From NCBI GenBank assembly GCA_003647095.1, contig QMME01000001.1, positions 1 to 47,128 of the forward strand: DNA of 47,128 nt, read 5' to 3'. Position numbers and translations under genes: made by a program. The notes beneath the pieces are model-generated. The model was not told the DNA's origin and ran no database searches. It was given only the letters and a program-made list of their open reading frames with translations. This DNA comes from Deltaproteobacteria bacterium. GTDB taxonomy: Bacteria; Myxococcota; B64-G9. Each line of letters opens with the position of its first letter. The first letter of the stretch is position 1. Below are positions 4,624 to 46,667 of this stretch, one piece after another.

Positions 4624-5352
4624 ATGTTCAGAAGCACAGGTGCGGCGTTCTCGGTGTTGTTGCTGGCGGGAACCCTCGCCGGCGCCGGCGAGTTGCACTA
4701 CCTGGAGCAGGAACTGGTGGTGGAGGCCCAGCAGGGCCGGCCCGAAAACCGCGGCTTGCAGAAAGTCTGGTGGGACGAACAACGCATTCGCAGCGAGAGC
4801 ACCTACGACGGCCGCACCAGCGTGGCCATCATCGACGACCGGGCCGGCAAGGTCACCCTGCTGTTTCCCGGCGAAAAGACCTGGCTGGGCATCGAACTGG
4901 AGCACTATCGCCAGGTACTGGCCAGGCGCCTCACGGCGGCGGGCCTGAACGATCCCCAGGCGGAGATCAAGCTGGAGCACACCGGTCGTCAGCGCCGCAT
5001 CGGCGACTGGGACTGTCACCTGGACGTCATCACCATGACCGGCAAATGGCCGGTGCGGGCCGAGTTGTGGGTAGCCGACCAGGCCCAGCTGGAACCGGCC
5101 GGCTACCTGCAGCTGCTGCAGCGGCTGGGGTTGGAGCGAGTCTTCGGGCGCCTGGCCGAACAGGTCGAGGCCCTGGGAGGACTGGTTATCGAGTCCCGCA
5201 CCGAGCAGGAGATTCACGGCCAGAAGATCGTCACCCGGCAGCGCATCGTGAAAATCTCCAGCCGGCCGGACCGGGGGAAGACGTTTGCCGTACCCGCCGG
5301 CTGGCAGCAGTTGCAGGACGAAAAGTTCGAACCCGAGAAAGGAGGCGATTGA
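4624..5352 (+). CDS. Secreted hypothetical protein
   Basis: Start moved to MFRSTGAAFSVLLLAGTLAGA (signal peptide) behind GTGAGG. The stop overlaps the next start (TGATG). Family not recognised. Confidence 0.55.
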   Translation: MFRSTGAAFSVLLLAGTLAGAGELHYLEQELVVEAQQGRPENRGLQKVWWDEQRIRSESTYDGRTSVAIIDDRAGKVTLLFPGEKTWLGIELEHYRQVLARRLTAAGLNDPQAEIKLEHTGRQRRIGDWDCHLDVITMTGKWPVRAELWVADQAQLEPAGYLQLLQRLGLERVFGRLAEQVEALGGLVIESRTEQEIHGQKIVTRQRIVKISSRPDRGKTFAVPAGWQQLQDEKFEPEKGGD

Positions 5353-8106: not shown

Positions 8107-8133
8107 GCCATCCTTTCGACCTTGCGACCGCCG

Positions 8134-8619
8134 TCAGCGGATAGCCAGCAGACAGGCGGTCAGGGCTACATCGAGTACCACCAGCGACAACCCCAGTACC
8201 AGGTAGAAGCGCCCCCCGACCGCGCCGCCGGGCACCAGGTAGCTGGTGGCCGGCTGCTGCGGATCGTACCAGACACGCACTTGTTGTCCGGGCTGGTAGA
8301 TGGCGCAGATGACCTCCGCCTCGGCTGCGTTACGATAGCATATCTGCCGGGCCGCCAGCCGCTCGCAGGTGTACTCCCGTCCGTCGACGGTATAGGAGAC
8401 CCGTACCAACGGCCAGTGCCCCGGTCGTCCCCGGCGGCGTCCCGCCGGGCAGGGGCCGCTTTTTACTTCCACCGTCTTTACCTCGCCGCTGACCGAGGGC
8501 CAGGCATGGCCCCGGCGAGTCAGGGCGTACTGCACCAGGGTGATGATACCGGCCAGCCCGAAGACACCGGGCACCAGCAGCCTGGCGATGAAATCCTGGG
8601 TTTGTGGTTCCAGCAGCAA
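8134..8619 (-). CDS. DUF3592-like membrane protein
   Basis: 161 aa. N- and C-terminal TM helices flank a beta-rich domain (VRVSYTVDGREYTCE..VRVWYDPQQP). Confidence 0.6.
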   Translation of the reverse strand: MLLEPQTQDFIARLLVPGVFGLAGIITLVQYALTRRGHAWPSVSGEVKTVEVKSGPCPAGRRRGRPGHWPLVRVSYTVDGREYTCERLAARQICYRNAAEAEVICAIYQPGQQVRVWYDPQQPATSYLVPGGAVGGRFYLVLGLSLVVLDVALTACLLAIR

Positions 8620-24835: not shown

Positions 24836-24969
24836 GTCATCAACTCCTCTCCGCAAGCGGCGTGGCCGGCACCCGTCAGAGAGCCCGGCGCGCGGGACCG
24901 TCCGTCGCCGGCCCGGACCCCCGACAGTACACCGGCCGCGTCCGCTCTTCAACGCGGCGACACAACCAC

Positions 24970-25133
24970 GGGGACAGGCACGGGAAAAAGTTTTTACGGA
25001 TCAGTCGGTTATTGCACCCGACAGGGATGAACCCCGGGCAACCACTTGATATTGAAGGCGAACCCCGGAAAGACGGGCTTCTCTTCTCTGACATCTCCTT
25101 GAACTACAAGGATTTTCCCGTGGGCCTGTCCCC
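24970..25133. repeat. MITE-like element bounded by about 21-bp imperfect inverted repeats of the GGGGACAGGC family
   Basis: The left end is GGGGACAGGCACGGGAAAAAG (24970-24990). The right end is TTTTCCCGTGGGCCTGTCCCC (25113-25133), whose reverse complement is GGGGACAGGCCCACGGGAAAA. The element is 164 bp and non-coding. Confidence 0.5.
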
Positions 25134-25207
25134 GCCATCGCCCATTTCCGAAGTCGGAAAGACATTGACGGGGAAGGTCACGGTAAATCGGCTCCGAGGG
25201 AAACCAT

Positions 25208-26447: not shown

Positions 26448-26945
26448 ATGTCCGGGCGAATCATCCAGGTCCTGGTCCTGCCGGCCCTGCTGGCCTGCCT
26501 CTCCTGCGATCGCTGCGGGGAGCAGACCCCGGACGAGGAGCTGATCACCAGGCTCGTCGACCGGGCGGTGGAGCTGGCCGAGAAGCATGACATCGGCGGG
26601 CTGATGGACCTTGCCAGCTCGGATTTCCTGGCCCGGCCGGGCAACCACGACGGCCGCGAGACCAGGCGGCTGCTTTTTCTCATCTTCCGGCGCTACCGCA
26701 GCATCGAGATCCTCCATCCCCGCCCGCGGGTGGAGCTGGACCCCTCCGGCGAGCGGGCCACGGCGCGGGTGGTGTTTCTCATGCTGCGCCGGGGCCAGGA
26801 GCGCCCCGACCTCGAGGGGCTGGGCGACGACCTGGACAGGTGGGTGGAGCGGGCGGCCGACTTCGCGCGGCTGTACCGGCTGGACCTGGACCTGGTGAAG
26901 ATCGACGGCGACTGGCTGGTGCAGCAGGCGCGGCTGGAAAGGTAA
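26448..26945 (+). CDS. Lipoprotein of unknown function (possibly NTF2-like fold)
   Basis: Start at MSGRIIQVLVLPALLACLSC (lipobox LLAC). The C-terminal 65 aa are identical to the C-terminus of the 30820..31125 product. Confidence 0.6.
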   Translation: MSGRIIQVLVLPALLACLSCDRCGEQTPDEELITRLVDRAVELAEKHDIGGLMDLASSDFLARPGNHDGRETRRLLFLIFRRYRSIEILHPRPRVELDPSGERATARVVFLMLRRGQERPDLEGLGDDLDRWVERAADFARLYRLDLDLVKIDGDWLVQQARLER

Positions 26946-26947
26946 CC
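26746..26947 (+). repeat. Copy A of a 202-bp direct repeat (96% identical to 30926..31127)
   Basis: Base-by-base comparison finds 8 mismatches, at 26762, 26777, 26810, 26828, 26831, 26921, 26939 and 26942. All are third codon positions and synonymous. Confidence 0.95.
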
Positions 26948-26992
26948 ACGGGCAACCACGGTTGGGGGCAACCACGGTTTCGGGCAACCACG
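26941..26992. repeat. Short tandem array of G(C/T)AACCACGG (4 copies; spacing 10, 16, 16 nt)
   Basis: GTAACCACGG GCAACCACGG ttgggg GCAACCACGG tttcgg GCAACCACGG. The last copy pairs with GTTGC at 26996-27000. CAACCAC also flanks the MITE-like element (24964) and occurs inside it (25038). Confidence 0.8.
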
Positions 26993-27048
26993 GGGGGTTG
27001 CCCCTACGGCATCGTCGCACGACACGTCGGCGTTCGTAGGGGCGGGCC

Positions 27049-27070
27049 CCCGTGCCCGCCCTGAAACAGG
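27049..27070 (+). terminator. GC-rich hairpin between the lipoprotein gene and the arsR promoter
   Basis: GGGCGGGC (27049-27056), loop CCCCGT, GCCCGCCC (27063-27070). There is no U-tract, so an intrinsic terminator role is uncertain. Confidence 0.3.
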
Positions 27071-27086
27071 CACCCGGGGCAGGACA

Positions 27087-27115
27087 GTTGCAATTAACCG
27101 CGTAACCGGGTATAT
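27087..27115 (+). promoter_or_regulatory. Candidate arsR-acr3 promoter/operator
   Basis: TTGCAA (27087-27092), 17 nt spacer, TATATG (27110-27115). TTGCA...TGCAA inverted ends bracket the promoter. AAGGAGG precedes the ATG at 27145. Confidence 0.45.
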
Positions 27116-27144
27116 GCAAACACCGAAAGGAGGACGAAGCCACC

Positions 27145-27540
27145 ATGCGCACCCTGACAAGAGTGTTCAAGGCCCTTGCGGACCAGACCCGGCTGCAGAT
27201 GCTGGGGCTGCTGCTCGAGGCCGGCGAGCTGTGCGTCTGCGACTTCGTCGCGGTGCTGCAGATAACCCAGTCCAAGGCGTCGCGACACCTGCGCCACCTG
27301 GTCGACGCCGGGCTGCTCGACGACCGGCGCGAGGCCGTCTGGGTGTACTTCCGCATCAGCGCCGAGCCGGGGCCGGCCCAGGCCCGGGTACTGGAAGTGC
27401 TGCCCGCGGTGCTTGCCGGCAGGATGCCCGCCGGGCTGTTCGAGCGGTTGGCCGCCTGGCGAGAGAGCAAGGAGCGCCCCGGCAGCGGCTGCCGGGTGTC
27501 GGCCGCCACCGGGGCGGCCGGGCGCGGGGGCGGGCGATGA
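27145..27540 (+). CDS. arsR: ArsR/SmtB-family arsenite-responsive repressor
   Basis: 131 aa. [29 protein letters not shown] carries the ELCVCD As(III)-binding motif and an HTH. Confidence 0.9.
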
Positions 27541-28649
27541 CCGGCCCGGGCGGCGGCGTCGCCGGGAGGCTCGCGGTCCTGGACCGCTTCCTCACCGTCT
27601 GGATATTCCTGGCCATGGGCATCGGCATCGGGGCCGGGTATCTCCTTCCCGGCGCCGTCTCCCTGCTGGAGGAGTTGAGCGTGGGCACGACGTCGATCCC
27701 CATCGCCGTCGGGCTGGTGCTGATGATGTACCCGCCGCTCGCCAGGGTCAGGTACGAACGGCTGGGTTCGGTCTTCCGCAACTTCCGGGTGCTGGGGCTC
27801 TCGCTGGTGCAGAACTGGCTGGTGGGCCCGGTGCTGATGTTCGGGCTGGCAGTGGTCTTCCTGCACGACCGGCCCGAGTACATGGTGGGGCTGATCCTGA
27901 TCGGCCTGGCGCGCTGCATCGCCATGGTCATCGTTTGGAACGACCTGGCCGGGGGCGACACCGAGTACTGCGCCGGGCTGGTGGCCTTCAACTCCATCTT
28001 CCAGGTGCTGTTCTACTCGCTGTACGCCTACCTGTTCATAACCGTCCTGCCCACCTGGCTGGGTCTGGAGGGTGCGGTGGTCGACATCACCATCGGCGAG
28101 ATCGCCGGCAGCGTCTTCATCTACCTGGGCATCCCCTTCATCGCCGGCCTGCTCACCCGCGTCTCGCTGGTGAGGCTCAGGGGCATCGACTGGTACCACA
28201 CGAAATTCATCCCCAGGATAAGCCCCATCACCCTGGTGGCGCTGCTGTTCACCATCGTGGTGATGTTCTCGCTCAAGGGCGGCACCATCGTCCAGCTTCC
28301 CCTCGACGTGGTGCGCATCGCCCTGCCCCTGCTGGTGTACTTCGTGCTGATGTTCTTCATCTCCTTCTTCATGTCCCGGCTGGTGGGCGCCACCCGGGGG
28401 CAGACGGTCACCCTGTCGTTCACCGCCGCTTCCAACAACTTCGAGCTGGCCATCGCCGTGGCCGTGGCCACCTTCGGCATCCAGCACGGGGCGGCCTTCG
28501 CCGCGGTGATCGGTCCCCTGGTGGAGGTGCCGGTGCTGATCGGCCTGGTCAACGTGGCCCTGTGGCTGGGCCGGAGGTACTTCCCGGCCGCCGCCGCGGC
28601 AGCTCCGGCCGGGGAGCGGGCCGGAGCGGTCGAGAGGAGATCCCCGTGA
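27537..28649 (+). CDS. acr3: ACR3-family arsenite efflux transporter
   Basis: The internal ATG overlaps the arsR stop (ATGA). [55 protein letters not shown] are ACR3 hallmarks. Confidence 0.9.
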
Positions 28650-28805
28650 CCGAGCAAGGTGTTCGCCTGCAGGTGCTGGTATTCGACGACTGTCTTCACG
28701 CCGAGGCGGCGCTCGCGGTCGCAACAGAAGGAGGCAGATCATGAGCAAGCAAGATGACGTGCGCCGGGAGGTGTCCCGCGCCTATGCGCGCAACCTCTTG
28801 GTGAT

Positions 28806-28841
28806 GGCCGCGGTGCTGGTGGCCGCGGTGCTGGTGGCCGC
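28806..28841. repeat. 15-bp perfect tandem duplication (GGCCGCGGTGCTGGT x2 plus a partial copy)
   Basis: Units at 28806-28820 and 28821-28835, with partial GGCCGC following. Confidence 0.9.
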
Positions 28842-28861
28842 CGGGGTCTTGGGCCTTTCCT

Positions 28862-28882
28862 GCGGGCCTGTCCCCGCTGTCT
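28862..28882 (+). repeat. Solo repeat arm GCGGGCCTGTCCCCGCTGTCT (identical 21-mer at 31727)
   Basis: Exact 21-nt match to 31727-31747 in the same orientation. Confidence 0.9.
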
Positions 28883-29041
28883 CCCACGAGAGTCTTGTAA
28901 GTGATGGTCTTCTGACGTAACGTTCATTATCCTTACGGGGGAGGCCTCGCGGAACACCGCCGGGGTTCAACGATTCGCCCCGCCGAGCTTCACCCGGCAA
29001 CTGCTTTCGCGACCGCAAGGCAAGAAAGAAAGGGGGCCGAT

Positions 29042-29338
29042 GTGAAATACGAGAAGAAGAGAGCCAGGAAGCAGTGGATCACCGACTGGTGGCCGAACAG
29101 GTTTAACCTGAGGCTCCTGCGACAGCACTGCTCGAGTTCCAACCCTTATGGCCCCGACTTCGACTATGCCGCCGAGTGCAGGCACCTGGATCTCGCCGCG
29201 GTGAAAAAAGACCTGCAGCAGATCATGACGAACACCGAAGAGTGGTGGCCGGCCGACTTCGGCCACTATGACCTGCTGTTCGTCCGACTGGCCTGGCATA
29301 GCGCGGGCAGCTACCGAATCTACGACGGCAGGGGCTGA
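29042..29338 (+). pseudogene. katG: Internal fragment of catalase-peroxidase KatG (about 100 of about 730 aa)
   Basis: [71 protein letters not shown] matches the KatG N-terminal haem-pocket region. It is cut at both ends and nhaA starts 85 nt later. Confidence 0.8.
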
Positions 29339-29422
29339 TCGACCGCGGCTCAGGAGACTGGCGGGCACCGCCGGATCGCGCTGGACATGGTCAGCCTGCC
29401 CAACTGACACAAGGAGCTCCGG

Positions 29423-30796
29423 ATGTCGAGCCAACTGCCACCAGGAGTCTCCCCGAGAATCCACCGGCTGGCCAGAAGGTTCTTCCGGCCGGTGGAGAGA
29501 TTTCTTCGTATCGAAGCGTCCAGTGGTATACTTCTTCTGGCCGCCGCGGCGACAGCCGTCTTCTGGGCCAACTCCCCTTGGGCGTCGGCGTACCACCACT
29601 TGCTGCACCTCGAGTTGTTCGTCGGATTCAGTCAACACACCCTGAGATTTTCGCTGCATTTCCTCATCAACGAAGTACTCATGGTCGTTTTTTTCTTCGT
29701 AGTGGGGTTGGAGATCAGGAGGGAGATCCTCGAGGGTGAGCTCTCTTCGCTGCGCCGGGCGGCCTTGCCCCTGGCTGCCGCTCTCGGAGGCATGGCGGTT
29801 CCTGCGATCATTTACCTGATGTTCAACCACGGCACCACCGCCGCGGGGGGGTGGGGGGTGCCCATGGCCACGGACATCGCCTTCGCCGTGGGCGTCCTCA
29901 CCTTGCTCGGAAGCCGCGTACCGCATTCGCTGCGAATGTTGCTGCTCGCCCTGGCCATAATCGACGACGTCGGAGCGATTCTCGTCATCGCCCTATTCTA
30001 CTCCGGAGCCCTGTCCTGGATCGGGCTGGCCGTGGCAGGCGTGGGACTTGCGATGACAGTGGTGATGCAATGGAGCGGGATACGTAACGCCCTGGCGTTC
30101 TTCGTACCGGGGGCGGTGGTGTGGGCAGGGCTGTTACAGGCGGGCATACACCCGACCTTGGCCGGCGTGCTGCTCGGCCTGCTCACACCTGCTCGAGCCT
30201 GGTACGGCCGAGAGGGGTTTGCGGCCGAGATTCGGCGTGCCTCCGCCGAGTTACAACGAGGCAACGGCACCGACGTCGAGCAATCCCTTCTGATCACCGG
30301 CGTCGCACGGGCCTGCCGGGAGGCTGTCGCACCGGCCGCCCGCATCCAGGCGGCCCTTCATCCCTGGGTCGCCTTCGTGATCATGCCGTTGTTCGCCTTG
30401 GCCAATGCAGGTGTAAATATCTCCACGGGCGAAGGTGCTTTCTCGGGTGACGGCAGGCTGGTGTGGGGAATATCGCTGGGATTGCTGCTCGGAAAACCTC
30501 TCGGTATCGTGTCGTTCACCTGGCTGGCCGTCCGGGCTGGACTGACATCGCTGCCGACGAGTGTCCGCTGGAGAGGGATACTGGTGGTCGGTTGTGTATC
30601 CGGCATCGGTTTCACCATGTCGCTGTTCATCGGAGCCCTGGCCTTCAGCGACTCCAGCCGGCACGCGGTGGCGAAGCTGTCGATCCTGGCCGCCTCGGTG
30701 GCGGCGGCAGCGATCGGCTTGCTGATCGGCAGATTCGCGCTGCATCCGAGAAAGTCCCGGTGTTGCCAAACTGCAGCCGGTGAGGTAGAGAGGTAA
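29423..30796 (+). CDS. nhaA: Na+/H+ antiporter NhaA
   Basis: 457 aa. ERFLRIEASSGILLL, GGWGVPMATDIAFA, LALAIIDDVGAILVIALFY signatures. Confidence 0.9.
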   Translation: MSSQLPPGVSPRIHRLARRFFRPVERFLRIEASSGILLLAAAATAVFWANSPWASAYHHLLHLELFVGFSQHTLRFSLHFLINEVLMVVFFFVVGLEIRREILEGELSSLRRAALPLAAALGGMAVPAIIYLMFNHGTTAAGGWGVPMATDIAFAVGVLTLLGSRVPHSLRMLLLALAIIDDVGAILVIALFYSGALSWIGLAVAGVGLAMTVVMQWSGIRNALAFFVPGAVVWAGLLQAGIHPTLAGVLLGLLTPARAWYGREGFAAEIRRASAELQRGNGTDVEQSLLITGVARACREAVAPAARIQAALHPWVAFVIMPLFALANAGVNISTGEGAFSGDGRLVWGISLGLLLGKPLGIVSFTWLAVRAGLTSLPTSVRWRGILVVGCVSGIGFTMSLFIGALAFSDSSRHAVAKLSILAASVAAAAIGLLIGRFALHPRKSRCCQTAAGEVER

Positions 30797-30819
30797 CAAT
30801 CAGGGGAGAGAGACGGCAC

Positions 30820-31125
30820 TTGAAGTGTCCCAGTTGCGGTGTGGAAAACCAGGGTTCGTTCAGGTTCTGCAGCAACTGCGGTGCCGGGTTGCCGGCGGCG
30901 CCGGTGCAGACCGGCCAATCCAGCGCCGGCGAGCGGGCCACCGCGCGGGTGGTGTTCCTCATGCTGCGCCGGGGCCAGGAGCGCCCCGATCTCGAGGGGC
31001 TGGGCGATGATCTGGACAGGTGGGTGGAGCGGGCGGCCGACTTCGCGCGGCTGTACCGGCTGGACCTGGACCTGGTGAAGATCGACGGCGACTGGCTGGT
31101 ACAGCAGGCGCGGCTGGAGAGATAA
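30820..31125 (+). CDS. Zinc-ribbon protein whose C-terminal 65 aa duplicate the end of the 26448..26945 lipoprotein (chimeric)
   Basis: MKCPSCGVENQGSFRFCSNCGAGL (zinc ribbon), a linker, then ERATARVVFLMLRRGQ...DWLVQQARLER identical to the other copy. Confidence 0.5.
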   Translation: MKCPSCGVENQGSFRFCSNCGAGLPAAPVQTGQSSAGERATARVVFLMLRRGQERPDLEGLGDDLDRWVERAADFARLYRLDLDLVKIDGDWLVQQARLER

Positions 31126-31127
31126 CC
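30926..31127 (+). repeat. Copy B of the 202-bp direct repeat
   Basis: See 26746..26947. The offset is exactly 4180 bp. Confidence 0.95.
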
Positions 31128-31175
31128 TCGGTATATTTTCCGCTTGTGGCGGGCGGGAAGAAGAGAACGACGAAC

Positions 31176-31553
31176 ATGGAGGACGACATGTTGAGCAATA
31201 AGCTGGAGGGGTTCATTCCTTTCATCCTGCAGGAGTGCGAATCGCAGTTTCCGACGACGTGCAAGAGCTGCGGCCGTGGCTTCGCCGACTTTCTCGACTA
31301 CGTTCGGGCAACGAGACCCATAGGCCTGATACCCGACATGGACCCCGACGACGATCCGCTGGGTCTGCTGTCGCTGGCGAACTGCAACTGCGGTAACACG
31401 TTGGCCCTGAAGTGCGAGAGTCTCGAGATGCACACGAGGTTTATCGACGCGCTCGAGAAAGAGAGCGCCGCATCCGGCCGCTCACTCGCTGACATCCTCG
31501 TCGAGATCCGCAGCAGGATTCGAGCGGCCGCTCTGGCCGAGCACGCATCTTGA
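31176..31553 (+). CDS. Hypothetical 125-aa Cys-containing protein
   Basis: MEDDMLSNKLEGFIPFILQECESQFPTTCKSCGRGF...LANCNCGN. The composition is natural. The family is not recognised. Confidence 0.45.
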   Translation: MEDDMLSNKLEGFIPFILQECESQFPTTCKSCGRGFADFLDYVRATRPIGLIPDMDPDDDPLGLLSLANCNCGNTLALKCESLEMHTRFIDALEKESAASGRSLADILVEIRSRIRAAALAEHAS

Positions 31554-31818: not shown

Positions 31819-32922
31819 TTGCTCGACGGTACGAGGACGAGGTGCTCGATGACCTGGGTGATGACGGAATGCCAAAGCATAAAAAGAGGAAGTCTATGCA
31901 GCAAGCTGGCCGAGCTGATACCCCGTGACTTTCCCGGCGGCTTCACCGTGGACCAGCTGCTGGACCACCCTGCCCTGGACGACGAGGATCGCGAAGAGAT
32001 CCGCTGGCACGCGGCCAACGGCGCCCTGGTGTATGGATTCGGCAACGGCATCTACTGCCGGCGTAGCGGCAGCCGCTGGGAGATCGTGGACTACCGCTCG
32101 CAACGTGCCCTGTGGTTCGGCGCCCTGCTGAAGGAGCTCGGCCTCGATCCCGGGGCCGCCGTGCGAACGGATGACGCCCGCTTCCTGCGGGCGCTCGACG
32201 CCGCCGACCTCAAGGTCCGCCGGGAGGTGGGGCCACCCGGCTATCCGCCCGGGTGCAACGGGAGGATGACGGAGCCGGACAGCGAGGCGGTCTTCGCCTC
32301 GGCCGCCGAGAAGCTGCAAGAGCGGTTCGGTCCCACCCCCTTGCTAACCTTCGATCTGGCCACGTGGATCACCACCGAGATCGACATCGCCAGGGTGCAG
32401 GAGAACTCGCGGCTGCAGTCCGGCGACGACGAGCCGCTCCCTCCTCTCTCCCGGGCGGCGTGGAACGGCGACCTCGACCTGGTCCGGAAGTTGATAGCCG
32501 AGGGTGCCGATGTGGACCGGCGTGACGAAACCGACAACCGGGCCCTCGACTATGCAGCCATTCGCGGCGACCTGCCCATCGTCGAGTTGCTGGTCTCCGC
32601 CGGGGCGGACGTACGGGCCGCCGGTCCCGATGGCTCGACGGTGCTTCACAGCGCGATGGAGTCCTGCAACCTGGACGTCGTTCGCTACCTGGTGGAGCAG
32701 GGCGCGGAAGTCAACGCCAGGATGGACGACACCACGCCCCTGCACCTGGCGGGCTACGGCTCACCGCCGGAGCTGATCGACTACCTGGTCGCGCAGGGTG
32801 CCGATGTCAACGCGGTCGATGGCGCTTACACGCCGCTGGACAACGCCATGTTTACGGGAAACCGGGAAATCGTTCGATTGCTGAAGAAGCATGGTGGGCG
32901 GTTTCGGATGGACCTGACGTAG
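31819..32922 (+). CDS. Ankyrin-repeat protein with unrecognised N-terminal domain
   Basis: The C-terminal part has about 5 ANK repeats (GDLDLVRKLIAEGADVDRRDETDNRALDYAA, GDLPIVELLVSAGADV, LDVVRYLVEQGAEVNA, ..). The true start may be an internal Met. Confidence 0.7.
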   Translation: MLDGTRTRCSMTWVMTECQSIKRGSLCSKLAELIPRDFPGGFTVDQLLDHPALDDEDREEIRWHAANGALVYGFGNGIYCRRSGSRWEIVDYRSQRALWFGALLKELGLDPGAAVRTDDARFLRALDAADLKVRREVGPPGYPPGCNGRMTEPDSEAVFASAAEKLQERFGPTPLLTFDLATWITTEIDIARVQENSRLQSGDDEPLPPLSRAAWNGDLDLVRKLIAEGADVDRRDETDNRALDYAAIRGDLPIVELLVSAGADVRAAGPDGSTVLHSAMESCNLDVVRYLVEQGAEVNARMDDTTPLHLAGYGSPPELIDYLVAQGADVNAVDGAYTPLDNAMFTGNREIVRLLKKHGGRFRMDLT

Positions 32923-32941
32923 GAGCGGCATCCCGCGCTCC
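32906..32941 (+). repeat. Copy 1 of a 36-bp direct repeat (35/36 identical to 34248..34283)
   Basis: GGATGGACCTGACGTAGGAGCGGCATCCCGC(G/T)CTCC. Covers the last codons and stop of the ankyrin gene. Confidence 0.9.
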
Positions 32942-32950
32942 CCCAACCAA

Positions 32951-32971
32951 GGGAACAGGCACGGGAAAAAG
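32951..32971 (+). repeat. Solo left-arm copy GGGAACAGGCACGGGAAAAAG
   Basis: 20/21 identical to 24970-24990. Confidence 0.85.
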
Positions 32972-33141
32972 TCAGCTATCGCCGAACCCAACCATTGGTC
33001 GCAGCAGCTGGTGTTTTTTTTCTTCTCTTTCCCGGTCACGACTACTACACTGTTGCCACATGCAAGCGTTCTTTCTGATGCGAGTGGTTTTTCCCTCACG
33101 GCATCCGTTCCACCGTCTCACCCCCAGGCAGTACGCCACTG

Positions 33142-33804
33142 ATGATCCGGCTCGAGATGCAACCGCTTGAGGTGCCGCTCGAACCTCGTGTGTGCTGCGC
33201 CTGGGCGAGCGCCCGCACCGAGCTCGCTCCCGGCTGGCAGGAGCTGTTTCCCGTGAGGAAGCTCGGCGTTGTGTTCGCCGGCGAGACGTTGCCGTGTTTC
33301 GGTATCTGGAAAGACACCCGTGGCGCCCGTTCTCGAGTGGCCGGGTTGCTGCGCGCCTGGCGCCACCGCGGACCGGGCGACTTCGTGGTGGAGCTACCCC
33401 GCCAGGGGCTCGATCCTCCGCTGCGCCTGGCCGTGGCCCGGCTCGACGGCGTGGCCACCCTCGGCAAGGCGAGCGAGTCGATCGCATCCATTATGCGCCG
33501 GCGCGGAGGCTTCTGGTGGCGCCTGCGCGGCCGCCACCTCCTCGGTCCCACTGACGTTCTCAAGGTGCCGCTGCTCGAGGCGAGCGGCCCGGGGCGGAAT
33601 CCTTTGGTCGTGATACGCCTCGGCCCGAGCGGCGGCGACTATGAACGACCCACCGAGCTCGCCCTCGGTCGCGGCGAGACGTACCGGCGCTATTTCGTGT
33701 GCGACGCACCGTTCTTTCTGTGGCTCGGCGAGCCCCGTTCCCGGCGACCGCGCCTGATTGCCAGATTCGCGGGCCCGCTCGGACAAGACTCGACACGGAG
33801 GTGA
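33142..33804 (+). CDS. Hypothetical protein, paralog A of an unrecognised family
   Basis: 220 aa. It shares the blocks PLEPR..W, LPCFG(I/L)W and L(A/V)LGRG..Y.R.FVCDAPF.LWLG.PR...P.LIA.F..P with the 34957..35430 product, and has an extra insertion of about 65 aa. Confidence 0.55.
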   Translation: MIRLEMQPLEVPLEPRVCCAWASARTELAPGWQELFPVRKLGVVFAGETLPCFGIWKDTRGARSRVAGLLRAWRHRGPGDFVVELPRQGLDPPLRLAVARLDGVATLGKASESIASIMRRRGGFWWRLRGRHLLGPTDVLKVPLLEASGPGRNPLVVIRLGPSGGDYERPTELALGRGETYRRYFVCDAPFFLWLGEPRSRRPRLIARFAGPLGQDSTRR

Positions 33805-33808
33805 TACC

Positions 33809-34048
33809 ATGACGAAAGAACTTTGGAGCCCCCTGCAGGCCACACAATGGGCTACACTCACGCCTCGAGAGCGCGCCGCTGCGCTCGAAGCGCTGGCGGA
33901 CGCGCTGGGCCTGCGCGCCCGCTTGCCAGCGAAGGCCAGGTGGTGCGGGGAGGGGCGGCGCAGTGCTGGCCCTGGCAGGGAGGCGGCGAGTGGACAACAC
34001 TGCTTTCCGCCAACCGCTCGCCCGCCGTCGAGCACGAGGGGTTTGTGA
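33809..34048 (+). pseudogene. Possible gene remnant
   Basis: GGAGGTGA precedes the ATG at 33809. The first ~35 aa (MTKELWSPLQATQWATLTPRERAAALEALADALGL) look protein-like, then the sequence degenerates into R/G/P-rich text. Confidence 0.25.
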
Positions 34049-34100
34049 TCCTGCGACCGGCACTGGGAGGGTGACAGGTACCCGTTGCGGCGAGGCGTTC

Positions 34101-34238
34101 TCACGGCAGGGGATGGGCGGCGAAGAAGCGCAGCATCTCGACGTTGGCGGAGATCTCGAAGCTCACCATCCCGACCATGCTCTCCGGCAGGGCGTCCGAG
34201 CCGCCTGGCCAGGTGTGGCCGCCGGCCGGGTGCGGAGG
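34101..34238 (-). pseudogene. C-terminal stub of a PHB-depolymerase-family esterase (COG3509-like)
   Basis: Manual translation gives PPHPAGGHTWPGGSDALPESMVGMVSFEISANVEMLRFFAAHPLP*. The GGHxWPGG and ...FF..HP ending are typical of this family. An in-frame stop lies immediately upstream, next to repeat copy 2. Confidence 0.4.
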
Positions 34239-34247
34239 TCAATGCCG

Positions 34248-34283
34248 GGATGGACCTGACGTAGGAGCGGCATCCCGCTCTCC
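34248..34283 (+). repeat. Copy 2 of the 36-bp direct repeat
   Basis: It is preceded by ..PGAEVNAGMDLT*, which looks like the last codons of another ankyrin gene. Confidence 0.9.
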
Positions 34284-34360
34284 TGGTATTGCCTGCCGGC
34301 GAGCCACGATGTTATTGTGGGTGCGTTCCCCTAGAGTCGATCATGAAGGCGGAAAGGAGG

Positions 34361-34543
34361 ATGTCTCCCATGGACGGTGCGATTATGGGAATGGTTGCGG
34401 TCATTATCCCCGTGGTCAGCGTTACCGCGGGGTTGGTGGTCGTGATCCGGGACCAGCTGAAAAAGATCGGCAAGAGGCTCGACGAGATCGAACGTGCTCT
34501 CGCACGGGACGGGAGTTCCGATCGGCGCAGTCGCCCTTGCTAG
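34361..34543 (+). CDS. Small (60 aa) single-TM protein
   Basis: AGGAGG precedes the ATG at 34361. MSPMDGAIMGMVAVIIPVVSVTAGLVVVIRDQLKKIGKRLDEIERAL. It is followed by the hairpin CTATCT-cgatcgt-AGATAG. Confidence 0.4.
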   Translation: MSPMDGAIMGMVAVIIPVVSVTAGLVVVIRDQLKKIGKRLDEIERALARDGSSDRRSRPC

Positions 34544-34566
34544 ATTGTCTATCTCGATCGTAGATA

Positions 34567-34960
34567 GTGGGCAAGGAGACTAGCGGTGGATTTCCTGACC
34601 CCCCTGAAAGAGCTGGCGGACGACTCGTAGATGGAGGCGCTGGAGGAGGTCTTCGCCGACCTGAACAAGGCGCCCGCCCGATTTGTCAAAAATCGCAGAG
34701 GCCTTCGACCGTTGCGTCGCCGATCATTCCAACGGAGATGCCTTCGCCGTCCTTTCACTGACGGTCGAGGGCTTCCGAGCCCTTCTGCGGCGGCTCGTTG
34801 AGAAAGGGCAACAGCCCCAACAGGAGGTTCTGCGCTATGACGCCGATCCTCGGGTGTCGGCGCCTCAAGTGGTGTCTGCCGTCCAGGCTACGCTGGATCT
34901 CCCCGAGGATGCGGCGACGCTCTATCTCCAAACACTGGCGCTGGCCCGGCCGGCGGTCAG
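34567..34960 (+). pseudogene. Decayed ORF (in-frame stop plus frameshift), 3'-truncated by the convergent paralog B gene
   Basis: Protein-like text continues across a TAG (..FLTPLKELADDS*MEALEEVFADLNKAP) and a frame change (..SKIAEAFDRCVADHSNGDAFAVLSLTVEGFRALLRRL...LDLPEDAATLYLQTLAL). Family not identified. Confidence 0.3.
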
Positions 34961-35430
34961 GGCGCCGGGTCGCCGAACCAGGCGATCAGCAGTGGTCGTG
35001 GTGCACGGGGGGTCCCCAGCCAGAGGGCAAAGGGGGCGTCACAGACAAAGTTGCGGAGGTAGGCATCACCTCTGCCGAGGACGAGTTCCTCGTCGGGACC
35101 CTGCTCGCCGCTCCCGTCCAGGGAGAGCACCACCTCGGGCCCGGGGCCGGCGCTCCGGGCCGCGATTGGCGGTATCTTGAGCGCATCCTCGCGGCCGAGC
35201 CGCTCCCGCCGCCGCGGCTCGATGCCATTCCAGAGCCCGAAGCAGGGCAGCACCTTGTCACCGAACCACACGCCGAGTTGCCGCCACGGGAACGACTCGG
35301 ACCAGCGTGGGGTCAGGTGGACGGCGGCCGCCGCCCAGAAGCAGTTGCGGGCTCGTGGTTCGAGCGGGGTGGTCAGCTGTACCTGGTCCAGTTCGATGAT
35401 GGTCTGCTCCCGTTTTCCTGGCTGAAGCAA
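34957..35430 (-). CDS. Hypothetical protein, paralog B of the 33142..33804 family
   Basis: 157 aa with a TTG start, 7 nt downstream of the Fic remnant stop. For the conserved blocks see paralog A. Confidence 0.55.
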   Translation of the reverse strand: MLQPGKREQTIIELDQVQLTTPLEPRARNCFWAAAAVHLTPRWSESFPWRQLGVWFGDKVLPCFGLWNGIEPRRRERLGREDALKIPPIAARSAGPGPEVVLSLDGSGEQGPDEELVLGRGDAYLRNFVCDAPFALWLGTPRAPRPLLIAWFGDPAP

Positions 35431-35436
35431 TTTTTT

Positions 35437-36006
35437 TCAAACCTCCGGCGTATCAGTCTCATAGAAGTTCTGGACCACCTGCTCCATTTGGGCGACTTCC
35501 TCGTCGGATAAGAAGTTGAAGAGAGCCTCTGCTTGAGGCGTCATGTCGATATACCTGTACCAAAGAGCAGTCTCGTTGTGAACGGTCATGCGGTCGTTTT
35601 CGTCGAGCGTGTATTCCACCAACGACATAAGAGGGCGAGAGAAGGCTTCCAGGGAAGCATCATAGTCGGCAAGGCTTTTCAGCATGGCCGCTGACACGGG
35701 GAACATGATTCCTTCGGGAATAAAGCCACGACGAGCGAGGATATTGTAGACCAGGAACCGGTGGATTCGACCGTTGCCATCTTCGAACGGATGTAGAAGC
35801 ACGAATCCGAATGCTACAACCGCGGATCTTCGATGAAGCACCGGTTCAACGCTACCTGCCAATCATCTCGATTGGGATTTCATCTGCGCTTTCACATTCA
35901 TGATGTCTCTTCTCGGGACATAGCGAAAAAACCACGAATTCGACCACGCTCGAAGAAGGTACCCGGTACACTGGAGAGGACGCGTGGCAGGAAGGACCGA
36001 CCTGAG
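35437..36006 (-). pseudogene. Fic/DOC-family gene remnant (5'-truncated, with an in-frame TGA)
   Basis: The Fic motif HPFEDGNGRIHRF is present. The same frame continues upstream (..YVPRRDIMNVKAQMKSQSR*LAGSVEPVLHRRSAVVAFGFVLLHPF) through a TGA at 35863-35865, then ends against the tauE stop at 36007. It is much shorter than typical Fic proteins of about 350-400 aa. Confidence 0.75.
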
Positions 36007-43794: not shown

Positions 43795-43962
43795 TACGCC
43801 CGGGGCGACGACGAGCGTCTTGTCTCCTTCAGAGCGGAAGGTTACTCGCCCGACGAGAACTACGAACACCACGTCCTCCTGCATCCGGTACGGCGGAATC
43901 TGGGCACCGGCGGCGAGCTCGATGCGACGGACCTTCATCTGGTCGTGCCCGAACAATAAGGA
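43795..43962 (-). pseudogene. Cupin-domain fragment
   Basis: SLLFGHDQMKVRRIELAAGAQIPPYRMQEDVVFVVLVGRVTFRSEGDKTLVVAPG is cupin-like. The expected C-terminal His-containing strand is absent. It abuts the permease stub. Confidence 0.4.
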
Positions 43963-43970
43963 CGCTCCGG

Positions 43971-44231
43971 GCCGAGGTACTTCATGACTGAGCCCTGGCT
44001 GACAAAGACACTGATGGCGCCGGCGATGAAGAAGGCCGGCACCAGGCAGAGCAGCACGTGCTCCCGGGCGTACCATTTGAGGAGCTTCAGGCCCTCGCCG
44101 ACGGCGGACATGAAGCGCTCGCTGCCTGCGGGCAGAAACCAGCAGGCGGCGAAAACCGCCAGCATGATCGATAGCCTGGTGCGCTCTTTCACCGCCGCCT
44201 TCCGAGATCCGCAGCGTGGCAACATGGCCAT
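43971..44231 (-). pseudogene. N-terminal stub of a COG0701/ArsP-type permease
   Basis: LKWYAREHVLLCLVPAFFIAGAISVFVSQGSVMKYLG matches the first ~87 aa of this ~330-aa permease family. The similarity stops at 43971. Confidence 0.5.
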
Positions 44232-44265
44232 ATTGGCAACATTGATTCAAAAAAAACCGGCCCAT

Positions 44266-44562
44266 TCATGCCCGCTCCTTGATTACCTGCATGGCGCAGG
44301 AAAAGAAGTCCATCACGCATGGGGTAAGCAGCCTGTAGTAGACCACGTTGCCTTCGCGCCGGTCCTCTACGATGCCGTGGCTGCGAAGCACGGCCAGGTG
44401 CTTGGACACGGTAGAGCGATCCAGGCCCACCAGATCGGTCAGTTCTCCCACCGAGCACTCGCCGCGGGAGAGCCGGTCGACTATCTTCAGGCGCGACTCG
44501 TTGGCCAGGGCCTTGAGCACCCGCGCCTGCATCTTGAAAACACTGTCATCGGCCCGTGGCAT
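44266..44562 (-). CDS. ArsR/SmtB-family regulator lacking the CVC arsenite site (candidate thiol/persulfide sensor)
   Basis: Start at MPRADDSVFKMQARVLKALANESRLKIVDRL behind GGAGGAG. It has ECSVGEL in place of ELCVCD, plus C-terminal Cys residues (TPCVMDFFSCAM). Confidence 0.85.
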   Translation of the reverse strand: MPRADDSVFKMQARVLKALANESRLKIVDRLSRGECSVGELTDLVGLDRSTVSKHLAVLRSHGIVEDRREGNVVYYRLLTPCVMDFFSCAMQVIKERA

Positions 44563-44586
44563 GGCTCCTCCAGCACTGCCGCGGAA

Positions 44587-44615
44587 AGTGTGTGGCATGT
44601 TGGCCAAGTTGTCAA
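44587..44615 (-). promoter_or_regulatory. Candidate promoter/operator of the arsR-led cluster
   Basis: On the minus strand: TTGACA (44615-44610), 17 nt spacer, CACACT (44592-44587). It overlaps the imperfect palindrome CATGTTGG/CCAAGTTG (44596-44611), whose core is TTGGCCAA. Confidence 0.35.
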
Positions 44616-44699
44616 GGTTGCCGTTTCCTTCATGTCCCACCGACGGCTCTTCCATTCGTGAACGGTGTCGCGGAGCGAAAAATAGAATCCGAAAAAGCA

Positions 44700-44712
44700 C
44701 GGGGACAGGCCC
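44700..44712 (+). repeat. Solo copy CGGGGACAGGCCC of the dispersed repeat
   Basis: Lies upstream of the arsR cluster at the edge of the next module. Confidence 0.6.
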
Positions 44713-45044
44713 AAGAAGAACTCGTCCGACAACTACCCTGACACTCACCGGAATCGACGCGGCTCGATTTCGGTGTACCGCTGCGCCTGGCCACCGAAGA
44801 GATCTGTATCTTTGCGTCATGCCCGAAGACAGCCACGCGATTCTCCTTGATTGCCGCGCCCAAAGCCGCAAAGATCAACCCATGAACTTATTCGTTTGGA
44901 ATGAAACCCAACAAGATCCCCGCATACAGGCGGAACCGAAAGGGCCTTTTTGGGGCCTACACGTACTTTATAGATTGTTCGCGACACACTTGATGCCATA
45001 AGGCGGTTAGACCACGTGAGCGGTCACGAAATATCAAAGGAGAG

Positions 45045-45647
45045 TTGTCCATGGCATTTTTGGGAGAATTGATCATCCCTGTGGCCACAATCATCGTTGG
45101 ACTCCTGTTTTTTTGGGGTCTGTCTGAATTGTTTTTTCTCGATATTTTAGGACTGGGACGTAGAAAAGCGATTCATCAATTACCAAAGGCGGCAAAAAAA
45201 TTCGGCTTCAAAGAAGACAAAAGCAAAACATCCCACAACTACGGCAAATACACCGGAACATATGGCGGGTATAATTTTGTGGTTAACCCGGAGAGCAGTG
45301 CCACCATCGAGTTGCACATGGACCCTGTTCCAGGCCTTGAGGAGATCGCCACATACAGGAAACAAACAAATTTCGATAGTGGAAATAATGGGTTTGATGG
45401 TTTTCTCAAAACACGTCTTGCATCCGATGACCTTGGGAGAAAACTGCGGGATGCCACCCCTTTTCTGGAGCATACCGTGCAGTTCGTCAAGCGCTGGAAG
45501 CGACCGTGCAACTATTTCCAGATTTACAAAGACACCATTTATTTCTCCTTCAAGTACGGCATGGGCCATTATATTCCGGCCTCTGTTCTGGAGGAAATTG
45601 TCCCGGATCTGGTTAAACTTGCCGATCTATTGCAGGCTATACCTTAA
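45045..45647 (+). CDS. Hypothetical membrane-anchored protein in a low-GC segment
   Basis: 200 aa. AAGGAGAG RBS and an N-terminal TM helix. K/N/F/Y-rich composition and roughly 40-45% GC by eye, against about 65-70% for the flanks. Confidence 0.6.
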   Translation: MSMAFLGELIIPVATIIVGLLFFWGLSELFFLDILGLGRRKAIHQLPKAAKKFGFKEDKSKTSHNYGKYTGTYGGYNFVVNPESSATIELHMDPVPGLEEIATYRKQTNFDSGNNGFDGFLKTRLASDDLGRKLRDATPFLEHTVQFVKRWKRPCNYFQIYKDTIYFSFKYGMGHYIPASVLEEIVPDLVKLADLLQAIP

Positions 45648-45714
45648 TGCGGCCTGACGTGCTCTCGCCCAATACGCAAGGAGCCAGGCCCCGAGGGCGA
45701 TCAGCCCAAAGCGC

Positions 45715-46119
45715 TTACTTTTTCTTGAGCAACGCATTCTGCGTGACGCTGATAAAGGCCGTGCCCGCCTGGTTGAAGCGGTCCATGACCTGGGCGAAGT
45801 CGAGCAGCGAGCGCGACAGGCGGTCGACCTCGTTGACCACCACGATGTCGATCTTGCCAGCCTCGATGTCGGCCAGTAGGCGCTGGAACGCGGGCCGCTC
45901 CAGGTTGGCGCCGGTGAAGCCGCCGTCGTCGTACTGCTCCTTGATCAGCTTCCAGCCGTCGTGCGCCTGGGACTTGATGTACCGCTCGCAGGACTCGCGC
46001 TGGGCGTCCAAGGTGTTGAAGTCTTGATCGAGCCCGATGGAGGTCGACTTGCGAGTGTAGATCGCACACCGCCTGGTCTCCGGCGGCGGGCCGGCGTTGC
46101 CGTTTCGGCGCTTCCTCAT
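45715..46119 (-). pseudogene. Large serine recombinase, catalytic N-terminal domain only (3'-truncated)
   Basis: [11 protein letters not shown] (catalytic Ser), [28 protein letters not shown]. Homology ends at FISVTQ, followed by NALLKKK*, where full-length proteins continue for more than 350 aa. Confidence 0.8.
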
Positions 46120-46667
46120 TGTTCCGCTCCCGCCCTGGCTCTCCGCGTCCGCTGCTTCAAACGGAAGAAGAGGAAGCCGTTCCACCGCGTCCCGGTGATC
46201 TCCAGGGCGATCTTCGAGAGGCTCTTGTACCGGCTGCCCTGGTACTCGAAGCCGTCATCGAGCACGGTGACCCGGTGTTCGACGCCCTTGTGCTCGCGGG
46301 TCAAGACCGTGCCCGGCGGCGGCAGGGCCGGATCGCGCTGCGGTTCTTCCAGCGCTGGTGCTGGCGGTGCTTTCCGTGAGCCCCCGTTGCTCGCCCGCCA
46401 TCGGACCGGCGCGTCGGGCGCCAGCTCCTGGATGCGCTTTTGGGCATGGTCCGAGAGCCCGCCCTCGGCCAGCTCCTGGATGCGCCAGGCGACCTTCTTC
46501 TTGAGGTAGGGCTTGTTGCCGCTGCGGGTGGGCTCGCCAAAGACCTCGCGGTACCTGTCCTTGAGCTGGCCCACGGTCATTTCGTGGAGCGCGGCGAGCT
46601 GCCCGGCGACGTCGGCGACCGCCGCCCGCCCGCGCCTGTCCTTCTTGCGTTTTCGGGTTGTCATCAT
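46116..46667 (-). CDS. DUF2924 domain protein (recombinase-associated)
   Basis: 183 aa. [60 protein letters not shown] overlap with the recombinase start. Confidence 0.8.

Follow-up and report, generated by a model that had tools for sequence, protein, structure and literature searches.

Introduction

The icd/icdC case, in which the end of a gene is duplicated, reportedly goes back to Hill et al. (1989), as cited by another paper, and Nobusato et al. (2000, Gene 259:99) are said to have described the class called 'insertion with long target duplication'. In Escherichia coli K-12, the icd/icdC duplication flanks the cryptic prophage e14 (PMC13626634). The insertions with long target duplication are recombinase-free and are bounded by imperfect target duplications of 46-423 bp, which often overlap the 3' end of a gene (Furuta, Abe and Kobayashi 2010, PMC2853133). 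Here, we examine a direct repeat in a 47,128-nucleotide stretch of DNA from a Deltaproteobacteria bacterium (Myxococcota; B64-G9; assembly GCA_003647095.1, contig QMME01000001.1), referred to below as the window. The two copies of the repeat, A and B, correspond to the 3' end of a putative lipoprotein gene and bracket a block with arsR-acr3 and nhaA genes.

The window is the entire contig C1 of a metagenome-assembled genome (MAG) that is 70% complete and consists of 325 contigs with a total of 3.4 Mb. We compare the two copies with each other, with the same locus in other assemblies, and with the systems mentioned above. The locus belongs to a known kind of insertion scar, and the observation is both real and well explained. 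More specifically, we hold with moderate confidence that the repeat is the scar of DNA that was inserted by recombination inside the end of the lipoprotein gene.

Repeat geometry and divergence

A repeat search of the window returned one outstanding direct repeat, with copy A at 26746-26951 (+) and copy B at 30926-31131 (+). The copies align without gaps over 206 nt at an offset of 4180, they are identical at 197 of the 206 positions (95.6%), and 3.97 kb of unique DNA lies between them. Copy A comprises 2 nt of the preceding codon, 65 codons, the stop codon and 6 nt beyond it, and forms the end of the complete lipoprotein gene (26448-26945, +). Copy B is in frame with the stub of a Zn-ribbon gene, and would represent the 3' end, now displaced, of another lipoprotein allele. 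The same 65 residues (GERATARVV...QQARLER), followed by TAA, are encoded by both copies, and the longest exact run common to them is 89 nt. No residual similarity was detected in the flanks by either blastn (word size 7) or tblastx, and both boundaries of the repeat are thus sharp.

An earlier note on this DNA had reported that 26746-26947 and 30926-31127 align without gaps at this offset with 194 of 202 positions identical, and that the eight mismatches are all at third positions and leave the protein unchanged. A base-by-base comparison reproduces both statements. The coding mismatches are at 26762, 26777, 26810, 26828, 26831, 26921, 26939 and 26942 (copy A numbering), every one of them at a third codon position and synonymous, and a ninth mismatch, at 26948, falls within the 6 nt of homology past the stop codon. 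According to a Nei-Gojobori count, the 65 codons contain 52.3 synonymous and 142.7 non-synonymous sites, giving a synonymous divergence (dS) of 0.17 and a non-synonymous divergence (dN) of 0. The probability that eight out of eight changes would be synonymous under neutrality is 2.7e-5 to 1e-4, depending on the transition bias.

While copies A and B differ by 4%, the strains of the population differ by 0.1-0.7% over the region, which is an approximately tenfold gap. Because of this gap, and because the differences are synonymous only, the divergence must predate the present population and have accrued under selection. The synonymous-only divergence further implies that the two gene ends diverged before the event that joined them, and that one of them is foreign. 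A duplication in place that was then left to drift is disfavoured, since the stub would have gathered non-synonymous changes.

Occurrence in other assemblies

Exactly the same proteins recur on contigs of ten or more other metagenome assemblies (ENA, JGI and NCBI), with contig names of MEGAHIT, SPAdes and JGI style. The interior of the block is spanned by five contigs of different sample origin, namely the window, L019/L023, L039, L021 and L037. Both copies are found on the window, on L019/L023 (75,956 bp, with the same order) and on L039, where copy A is limited to its last 120 nt. A break point at 28.8-29.0 kb, near which other contigs end or start (28787-29025 in L020, L024, L025 and L038), is crossed by L021 and L037.

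At the nine variable sites, copy A has the haplotype GTCCCGAGA in nine of the ten A copies on other contigs. The copy of L032 deviates only at the non-coding site 26948, and that of L039 covers only the last four sites. For copy B, the haplotype is CCTTTAGAT in all other assemblies but L022, a 1.5-kb contig that has CCCCCAGAT. The three A-type bases clustered there are the sole variation seen in copy B, and no amino-acid variant of copy B occurs across the assemblies. The mixed haplotype may have arisen by gene conversion, may be an older haplotype, or may come from low-k graph mixing in a short, low-coverage contig, and since several origins are possible it is not used as evidence.

These observations bear on the possibility that the repeat is an assembly artefact, made of copies from different strains or loci. 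The genome is an incomplete and fragmented MAG, several assemblies break inside the block near 28.8-29.0 kb, and the haplotype of L022 could itself be a low-k graph artefact. However, both copies have unique sequence on either side, each junction was recovered in several samples and by different assemblers, the window, L019/L023 and L039 hold both copies, and L021 and L037 bridge the break point. In addition, the MEGAHIT-style contig names with 'k141_' point to a final k of 141, which exceeds the longest shared run of 89 nt. A one-off mis-join of strains by the assembler, a possibility that the earlier note had raised, is thus unlikely as judged from the contigs, and we consider an artefactual origin of the repeat to be very improbable.

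Proposed origin

In the scenario that we favour, the lipoprotein gene of the ancestor would have been followed directly by a 121-aa hypothetical gene (31188-31553, +). The latter is now the first gene after copy B, it is called in all related contigs without a Pfam match, and it is presumed to be the original downstream neighbour. DNA from a related lineage, at about 17% synonymous divergence, roughly at the species boundary, would then have recombined within the last ~200 bp of the lipoprotein gene. This DNA would have brought its own allele of the gene end, followed by the genes from arsR-acr3 to nhaA and by a Zn-ribbon gene as far as codon 35. The incoming end (copy A) would complete the working lipoprotein gene, and the resident end (copy B) would have been shifted 4.18 kb downstream, where it came by chance to be in frame with the Zn-ribbon stub.

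The eight differences would date from a time when each end was part of a full-length gene under selection, in a lineage of its own, which would explain why they are all synonymous. Copy B would have been a stub too briefly for decay to be visible, so that the juxtaposition would be recent. The block would have had no recombinase of its own. It could have come in through one crossover with a circular intermediate, or homology could have anchored its import at one end while the far end was joined illegitimately. The join may thus have been of either kind or, less probably, the work of a now-lost site-specific system. The values of dS and dN, the difference between the A/B and the strain divergence, and the end of the homology 6 nt past the stop codon, comparable to icd/icdC of e14, favour what the earlier note had proposed, namely that two alleles diverged under purifying selection and were juxtaposed by recombinational insertion of the block.

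It is important to point out that some observations weigh against this scenario. Neither an empty-site allele, with the lipoprotein gene running directly into the 121-aa gene, nor a donor allele was found in the assemblies or in the relatives. In an empty site, copy A would run directly into TATATTTTCC..., and in a circle or tandem form copy B would run into GCAACCACGG... The arrangement is fixed across the at least ten assemblies, in which every A copy is followed by the ars side and every B copy comes after the Zn-ribbon stub; contigs do, however, drop rare variants. Since no empty-site or donor allele was found, the direction of the event and its nature as an insertion are inferred. Furthermore, none of the assemblies shows a disruption of the open reading frame (ORF) formed by the Zn-ribbon stub and copy B. 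Its ribosome-binding site is good, it starts with ATG in five of the eight other assemblies compared, and a selected gene would look the same. Finally, the differences of copy B relative to copy A include five GC->AT changes, all of them synonymous, which, if they took place after the truncation, would argue for selection on copy B.

Lipoprotein gene and its homologs

The gene that ends in copy A is complete, as the earlier note had surmised, but its product has 165 residues and not 166. It is regarded as a putative lipoprotein because of an N-terminal hydrophobic stretch and an LLAC motif seen in the sequence. The protein has no sequence match in Pfam. Its AlphaFold model, obtained with an alignment of 14 homologs, has a predicted local distance difference test score (pLDDT) of 85.6. 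In a Foldseek search, this model matched SgcJ, NTF2, SnoaL-like and ketosteroid-isomerase-like chains with a probability of 1.0, and the target-normalised template-modelling score (TM-score) reached 0.81, to SgcJ 4ovm and NTF2 1gy6. The modelled fold is that of an NTF2-like cone, with three helices packed against a curved antiparallel sheet.

The identical lipoprotein is called on contigs of the other assemblies. Full-length homologs with 40-60% identity are present in 9 of 17 genomes of the same family and also in other Myxococcota MAGs; in Myxococcota as a whole, the homologs are widespread and always full-length. The homologs P0002-P0008 carry a conserved tail, FKGLGFGQ, after ...LER; in both copies of the window, LER are the last residues.

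In the closest homologs (50-60% identical), the gene lies between HDAC/HAD and convergent PilZ-FHA, gpsA, AAA and T2SS-ATPase genes. This context differs from that in the window and is uninformative about the insertion event. The HDAC/HAD...PilZ-FHA/GpsA cluster was not recovered in the MAG at its 70% completeness, and none of the neighbours in the window is conserved around the homologs in nine genomes of the family (six regions of 13-20 kb and three short loci). When JGI metagenomes and GTDB genomes were scanned with degenerate patterns for donor or sister alleles of the lipoprotein, nothing closer than 53% came up.

Zn-ribbon chimera

We now turn to the other end of the block. The Zn-ribbon gene stub (30820-30925, +) consists of 35 codons and the first base of the junction codon (MKCPSCGVENQGSFRFCSNCGAGLPAAPVQTGQSS), and it is preceded by its own GGAGAG ribosome-binding site. 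Together with copy B, it forms a chimeric ORF of 101 codons (30820-31125, +), in which, as read from the nucleotide sequence, the stub is joined in frame to a displaced gene end that encodes the C-terminal half of the NTF2-like domain. The assignment as a zinc ribbon, made in the earlier note, holds up, since the two CxxC knuckles score above the Pfam gathering cut-offs (36.3 bits against 28 for DUF7577, PF24463, and 30.0 against 25 for Zn_Ribbon_1, PF13240). The best paralog of the stub in this genome, on contig C8, is 51% identical over 35 aa.

No second protein that combines a Zn-ribbon with half of an NTF2-like domain was found, either in a word-indexed search of 5.8 billion proteins or in a HMMER search of 1.84 billion representatives. 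Both kinds of protein were returned separately, and the short matches proved to be truncated fragments without a Zn-ribbon. The chimera is therefore private to this population. As to which architecture is ancestral, a matter that had been left to a homolog survey, it is the full-length lipoprotein that is widespread, while the Zn-ribbon with the C-terminal module is no native architecture.

Residues 101-165 of the lipoprotein, the part encoded by copy B, make up roughly half of its single domain, with one long strand (103-114), one helix (129-136) and the final hairpin (142-164). For the chimera, a model with a pLDDT of 68.6 was obtained, with values below 50 for the Zn-ribbon part and 72-88 for the C-terminal part, which is modelled as in the parent. 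The model says nothing about autonomous folding of the fragment, however, because the alignment was drawn from full-length homologs.

The variation within the population is concentrated in the other part of the chimera. Among nine assemblies including the window, the 106 nt of the Zn-ribbon part contain four polymorphic sites, compared to about 0.6% variable sites in the neighbouring coding DNA, and all four affect the start codon or an amino acid: an ATG/TTG start, Pro/Arg in the CPxCG knuckle, and a GC->AT dinucleotide that changes Ala to Met. The start codon is TTG in the window. The variants at 30820 and 30830 are linked, as TTG with CPSCG (window and L037-L039) or ATG with CRSCG (L019-L022 and L036), and L036 also has Ala27Met.

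Another option considered was that the chimera is a selected new gene, which would mean that a partial duplication of the gene end was captured and that both copies are under purifying selection. The absence of non-synonymous changes over 65 codons at a dS of 0.17 is in line with this, as is the ORF itself, which all assemblies retain uninterrupted and with a ribosome-binding site, and which begins with ATG in several of them. If L022 represents the older state, three further changes in copy B would again be synonymous. On the other hand, the cone-forming helices are missing from the fragment, which amounts to half of a single-domain fold, the signal peptide has been lost, so that the compartment would differ from that of the parent, and the architecture recurs in none of the 1.84 billion representatives. 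The four polymorphisms include one at the conserved proline of the CPxCG knuckle. Moreover, a duplication in situ would have copied flanking non-coding DNA as well, but the homology stops 6 nt past the stop codon. Taken together, a selected chimera appears quite unlikely.

The insertion scenario would instead make the Zn-ribbon fusion a leftover, and a stranded stub is also its most likely status. The earlier note had allowed for copy B to be either self-sufficient as a module or a non-functional chimera; the half-cone and the excess of non-synonymous and start-codon polymorphism in the Zn-ribbon part lean towards the latter.

Block between the copies

Directly at the stop codon of copy A begins a tandem array of ~16-nt units (GCAACCACGGTTNNGG; 26941-27012, +), with a GGGCAACC/GGTTGCCC hairpin at its end. 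Strains differ in the number of units, and the distance from the stop codon of copy A to arsR is 184, 200 or 217 nt. Then follow the gene of an ArsR-family repressor (27145-27540, +; Pfam HTH_5, E 5.7e-14) and that of an Acr3-type arsenite efflux permease (27537-28649, +; Pfam SBF, E 1.2e-59). Myxococcales and other MAGs contain the best relatives of the latter, with about 80% identity. Among 80 related loci, acr3 adjoins arsR in 44, and a link of acr3 to the lipoprotein gene, the katG fragment or nhaA is seen in none.

Further downstream there is a stub region with a 59-codon ORF (28741-28920, +), close to which the assembly breaks mentioned above are located, and which contains a solo arm of a dispersed palindromic repeat at 28856-28886. 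It is followed by a 98-codon ORF (29042-29338, +), a pseudogene stub of the catalase-peroxidase KatG. Residues 11-98 of this N-terminal fragment match residues ~21-108 of ~730 in KatG (phmmer against PDB, E 1.4e-33). The last complete gene of the block encodes the Na+/H+ antiporter NhaA (29423-30796, +; Pfam Na_H_antiport_1, E 6.5e-139). Identity to its nearest relatives does not exceed 56%, and no Zn-ribbon gene lies downstream of nhaA in any of 80 relatives. The GC content at third codon positions is 0.75 for nhaA and 0.75-0.83 for the segment of katG stub and nhaA, compared to 0.83-0.92 for the lipoprotein and ars genes.

The Pfam and phmmer results thus agree with the gene content that had been assigned before, i.e. 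arsR-acr3, a katG fragment and nhaA. By its composition, the block is itself a patchwork of arsR-acr3, stubs, a palindromic-repeat arm, a piece of katG, and nhaA. That it might be a recurrent unit was also considered and rejected, as the relatives of acr3 and nhaA in other genomes occur in every case apart from one another and from the lipoprotein gene.

Pfam scans of the genes of the block and their neighbours detected no integrase, excisionase, transposase or phage gene, either within the block or adjoining the repeat copies. The contig lacks tyrosine recombinases, the only PF00589 match of the genome being on contig C192. The contig has no tRNA genes or Rfam families, and a promoter and terminator scan gave nothing above the shuffled expectation. 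An integron, which would consist of an IntI integrase, attI and cassettes, does not match either: the contig has no tyrosine recombinase, although the genes lie on the same strand with palindromic repeats between them.

These results are relevant to another explanation, according to which the block is a decayed site-specific integrative element similar to e14 or phage 21. It would target the 3' end of the lipoprotein gene and carry a replacement end, with copies A and B as its attL and attR. Its integrase would either act in trans or have been lost by a later deletion. The anatomy is indeed close to that of icd/icdC, with a sharp 5' edge, homology that ends at the stop codon and mostly synonymous differences, and the many gene stubs indicate that deletions have occurred in the block. 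A truncated serine recombinase gene and a DUF2924 gene are also present at 45.7-46.7 kb of the same contig. However, mobility genes are missing from the block and its surroundings as just described, the block is not recurrent, and the other repeat-flanked blocks of this genome are likewise recombinase-free. We therefore judge a decayed element of this type to be unlikely.

The serine recombinase gene, the only recombinase gene on the contig, is of the resolvase type (45715-46185, -), is accompanied by the DUF2924 gene (46116-46667, -), and is located 14.6 kb downstream of copy B. The region 43935-46667 at the end of the contig also contains an ArsP fragment, a second ArsR-like ORF (named by eye) and a low-GC ORF of 200 aa, and its genes look like remnants of another mobile element.

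Other repeat-flanked blocks in the genome

The insertion scenario can also be considered in the light of similar structures in the same genome. A direct repeat of 36 nt (32906-32941 and 34248-34283, with 35 of 36 positions identical) flanks a 1.34-kb block, and is made up of the last five codons of an ankyrin gene, the stop codon and a GGAGCG/CGCTCC hairpin. In this case the empty site is available: in L023, the ankyrin gene runs straight into the sequence after the second copy. On contig C87 of the MAG, a direct repeat of 173 nt (4785-4957 and 8121-8293, 95.4% identical) duplicates the 3' end of a nuclease-like gene (298 aa) as far as the stop codon and flanks a low-GC block of 3.3 kb. Three of the codon changes between its copies are non-synonymous and one is synonymous, and because of these non-synonymous changes the C87 repeat serves as an internal comparator for a drifting stub. 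Its block contains an ERCC4-like and a PIN-like ORF (named by eye).

A third kind of variation involves a MITE-like (miniature inverted-repeat transposable element) sequence of 175 nt with the inverted ends CGGGGACAGGCACGGGAAAA / TTTTCCCGTGGGCCTGTCCCCG. It is present as a single copy in the window (24961-25135). L023, L024 and L025 have two copies of it with 93% identity (at 2060-2234 and 8514-8688 in L023), and the 6.3-kb GerE-DUF4832-PQQ-FGE-sulfatase block between these copies is absent from the window. The palindromic core GGCCTGTCCCCGC has about 48 occurrences in the 3.4-Mb MAG, compared to about one expected.

Strains also differ downstream of the ankyrin gene (32933-35899 against L023:16485-18341), and in other assemblies an intact Fic gene of 509 aa stands where the window has about 3 kb of different DNA, with a 314-nt piece in common.

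With the 6.3-kb and 1.34-kb blocks being present or absent between strains, the neighbourhood is a hotspot in which repeat-flanked, recombinase-free blocks come and go. The genome contains three stranded gene-end repeats, one of them with an empty-site allele, which are found near members of the palindromic repeat and end at or just after a stop codon. One may go further and ask whether recombinase-free, gene-end-duplicating insertion is a recurrent and specific route of island gain in this lineage, tied to the palindromic repeats or to a trans-acting factor. We regard this as a doubtful proposition at present. If it were true, chimeric ORFs such as that of the Zn-ribbon and the NTF2 half would arise as a by-product and might be expressed.

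As a single-locus result, the findings are more explanatory than surprising. The locus provides an example of how accessory genes, here for arsenite efflux and Na+/H+ antiport, can enter a chromosome without a mobility gene while the target gene is left intact, and such insertions generate in-frame chimeric ORFs as a by-product. The two further cases and the presence or absence of blocks between strains make the population usable for studying how insertions with 'long target duplication', described in 2000, arise.

Comparison with known systems

Homology-facilitated illegitimate recombination is reportedly known from naturally transformable bacteria (de Vries and Wackernagel 2002; Prudhomme et al. 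2002). A one-sided anchor of ~200 bp with an illegitimate join would give the sharp junction between the Zn-ribbon stub and copy B. The classical products of this process replace or delete recipient DNA rather than duplicate the anchor.

The comparison with e14 was made in E. coli K-12 MG1655, where the icd/icdC repeat of 165 nt has 12 differences, a sharp 5' edge, and homology that ends 2 nt past the stop codon, as against 6 nt past it here. As in e14 and phage 21, the insert lies between an intact gene, the last codons of which are supplied by the insert, and the stranded original gene end. The differences are nearly all synonymous in both cases, with nine synonymous and two conservative codon changes over 165 nt in icd, and eight and none, respectively, over 202 nt here. 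Thus, the direct repeat of a gene 3' end with homology ending at the stop codon, characteristic of the e14 type, is present, while the integrase within or beside the element is not. e14 is a 15-kb prophage with an integrase and an excisionase (intE, xisE) and is known to excise, whereas the present block has 4.2 kb and neither recombinase nor phage genes nor an observed empty site. A further difference is that the stranded end is here fused in frame to the stub of a Zn-ribbon gene.

With the insertions with long target duplication, the block shares a size below 20 kb, the absence of integrase and transposase, and a long imperfect direct repeat of the target, well above the 30 bp that defines the class. 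The class is also defined by an empty-site genome with one copy of the repeat. Such a genome, with the target uninterrupted, is missing here among the relatives and metagenomes, but it is present for the block at the end of the ankyrin gene. The described cases concern restriction-modification systems, while the cargo here consists of arsR-acr3, nhaA and gene stubs. The mechanism of the class is attributed to recombination and not to a dedicated enzyme (PMC2853133). All in all, the class of insertions with long target duplication fits the block better than the e14 type does.

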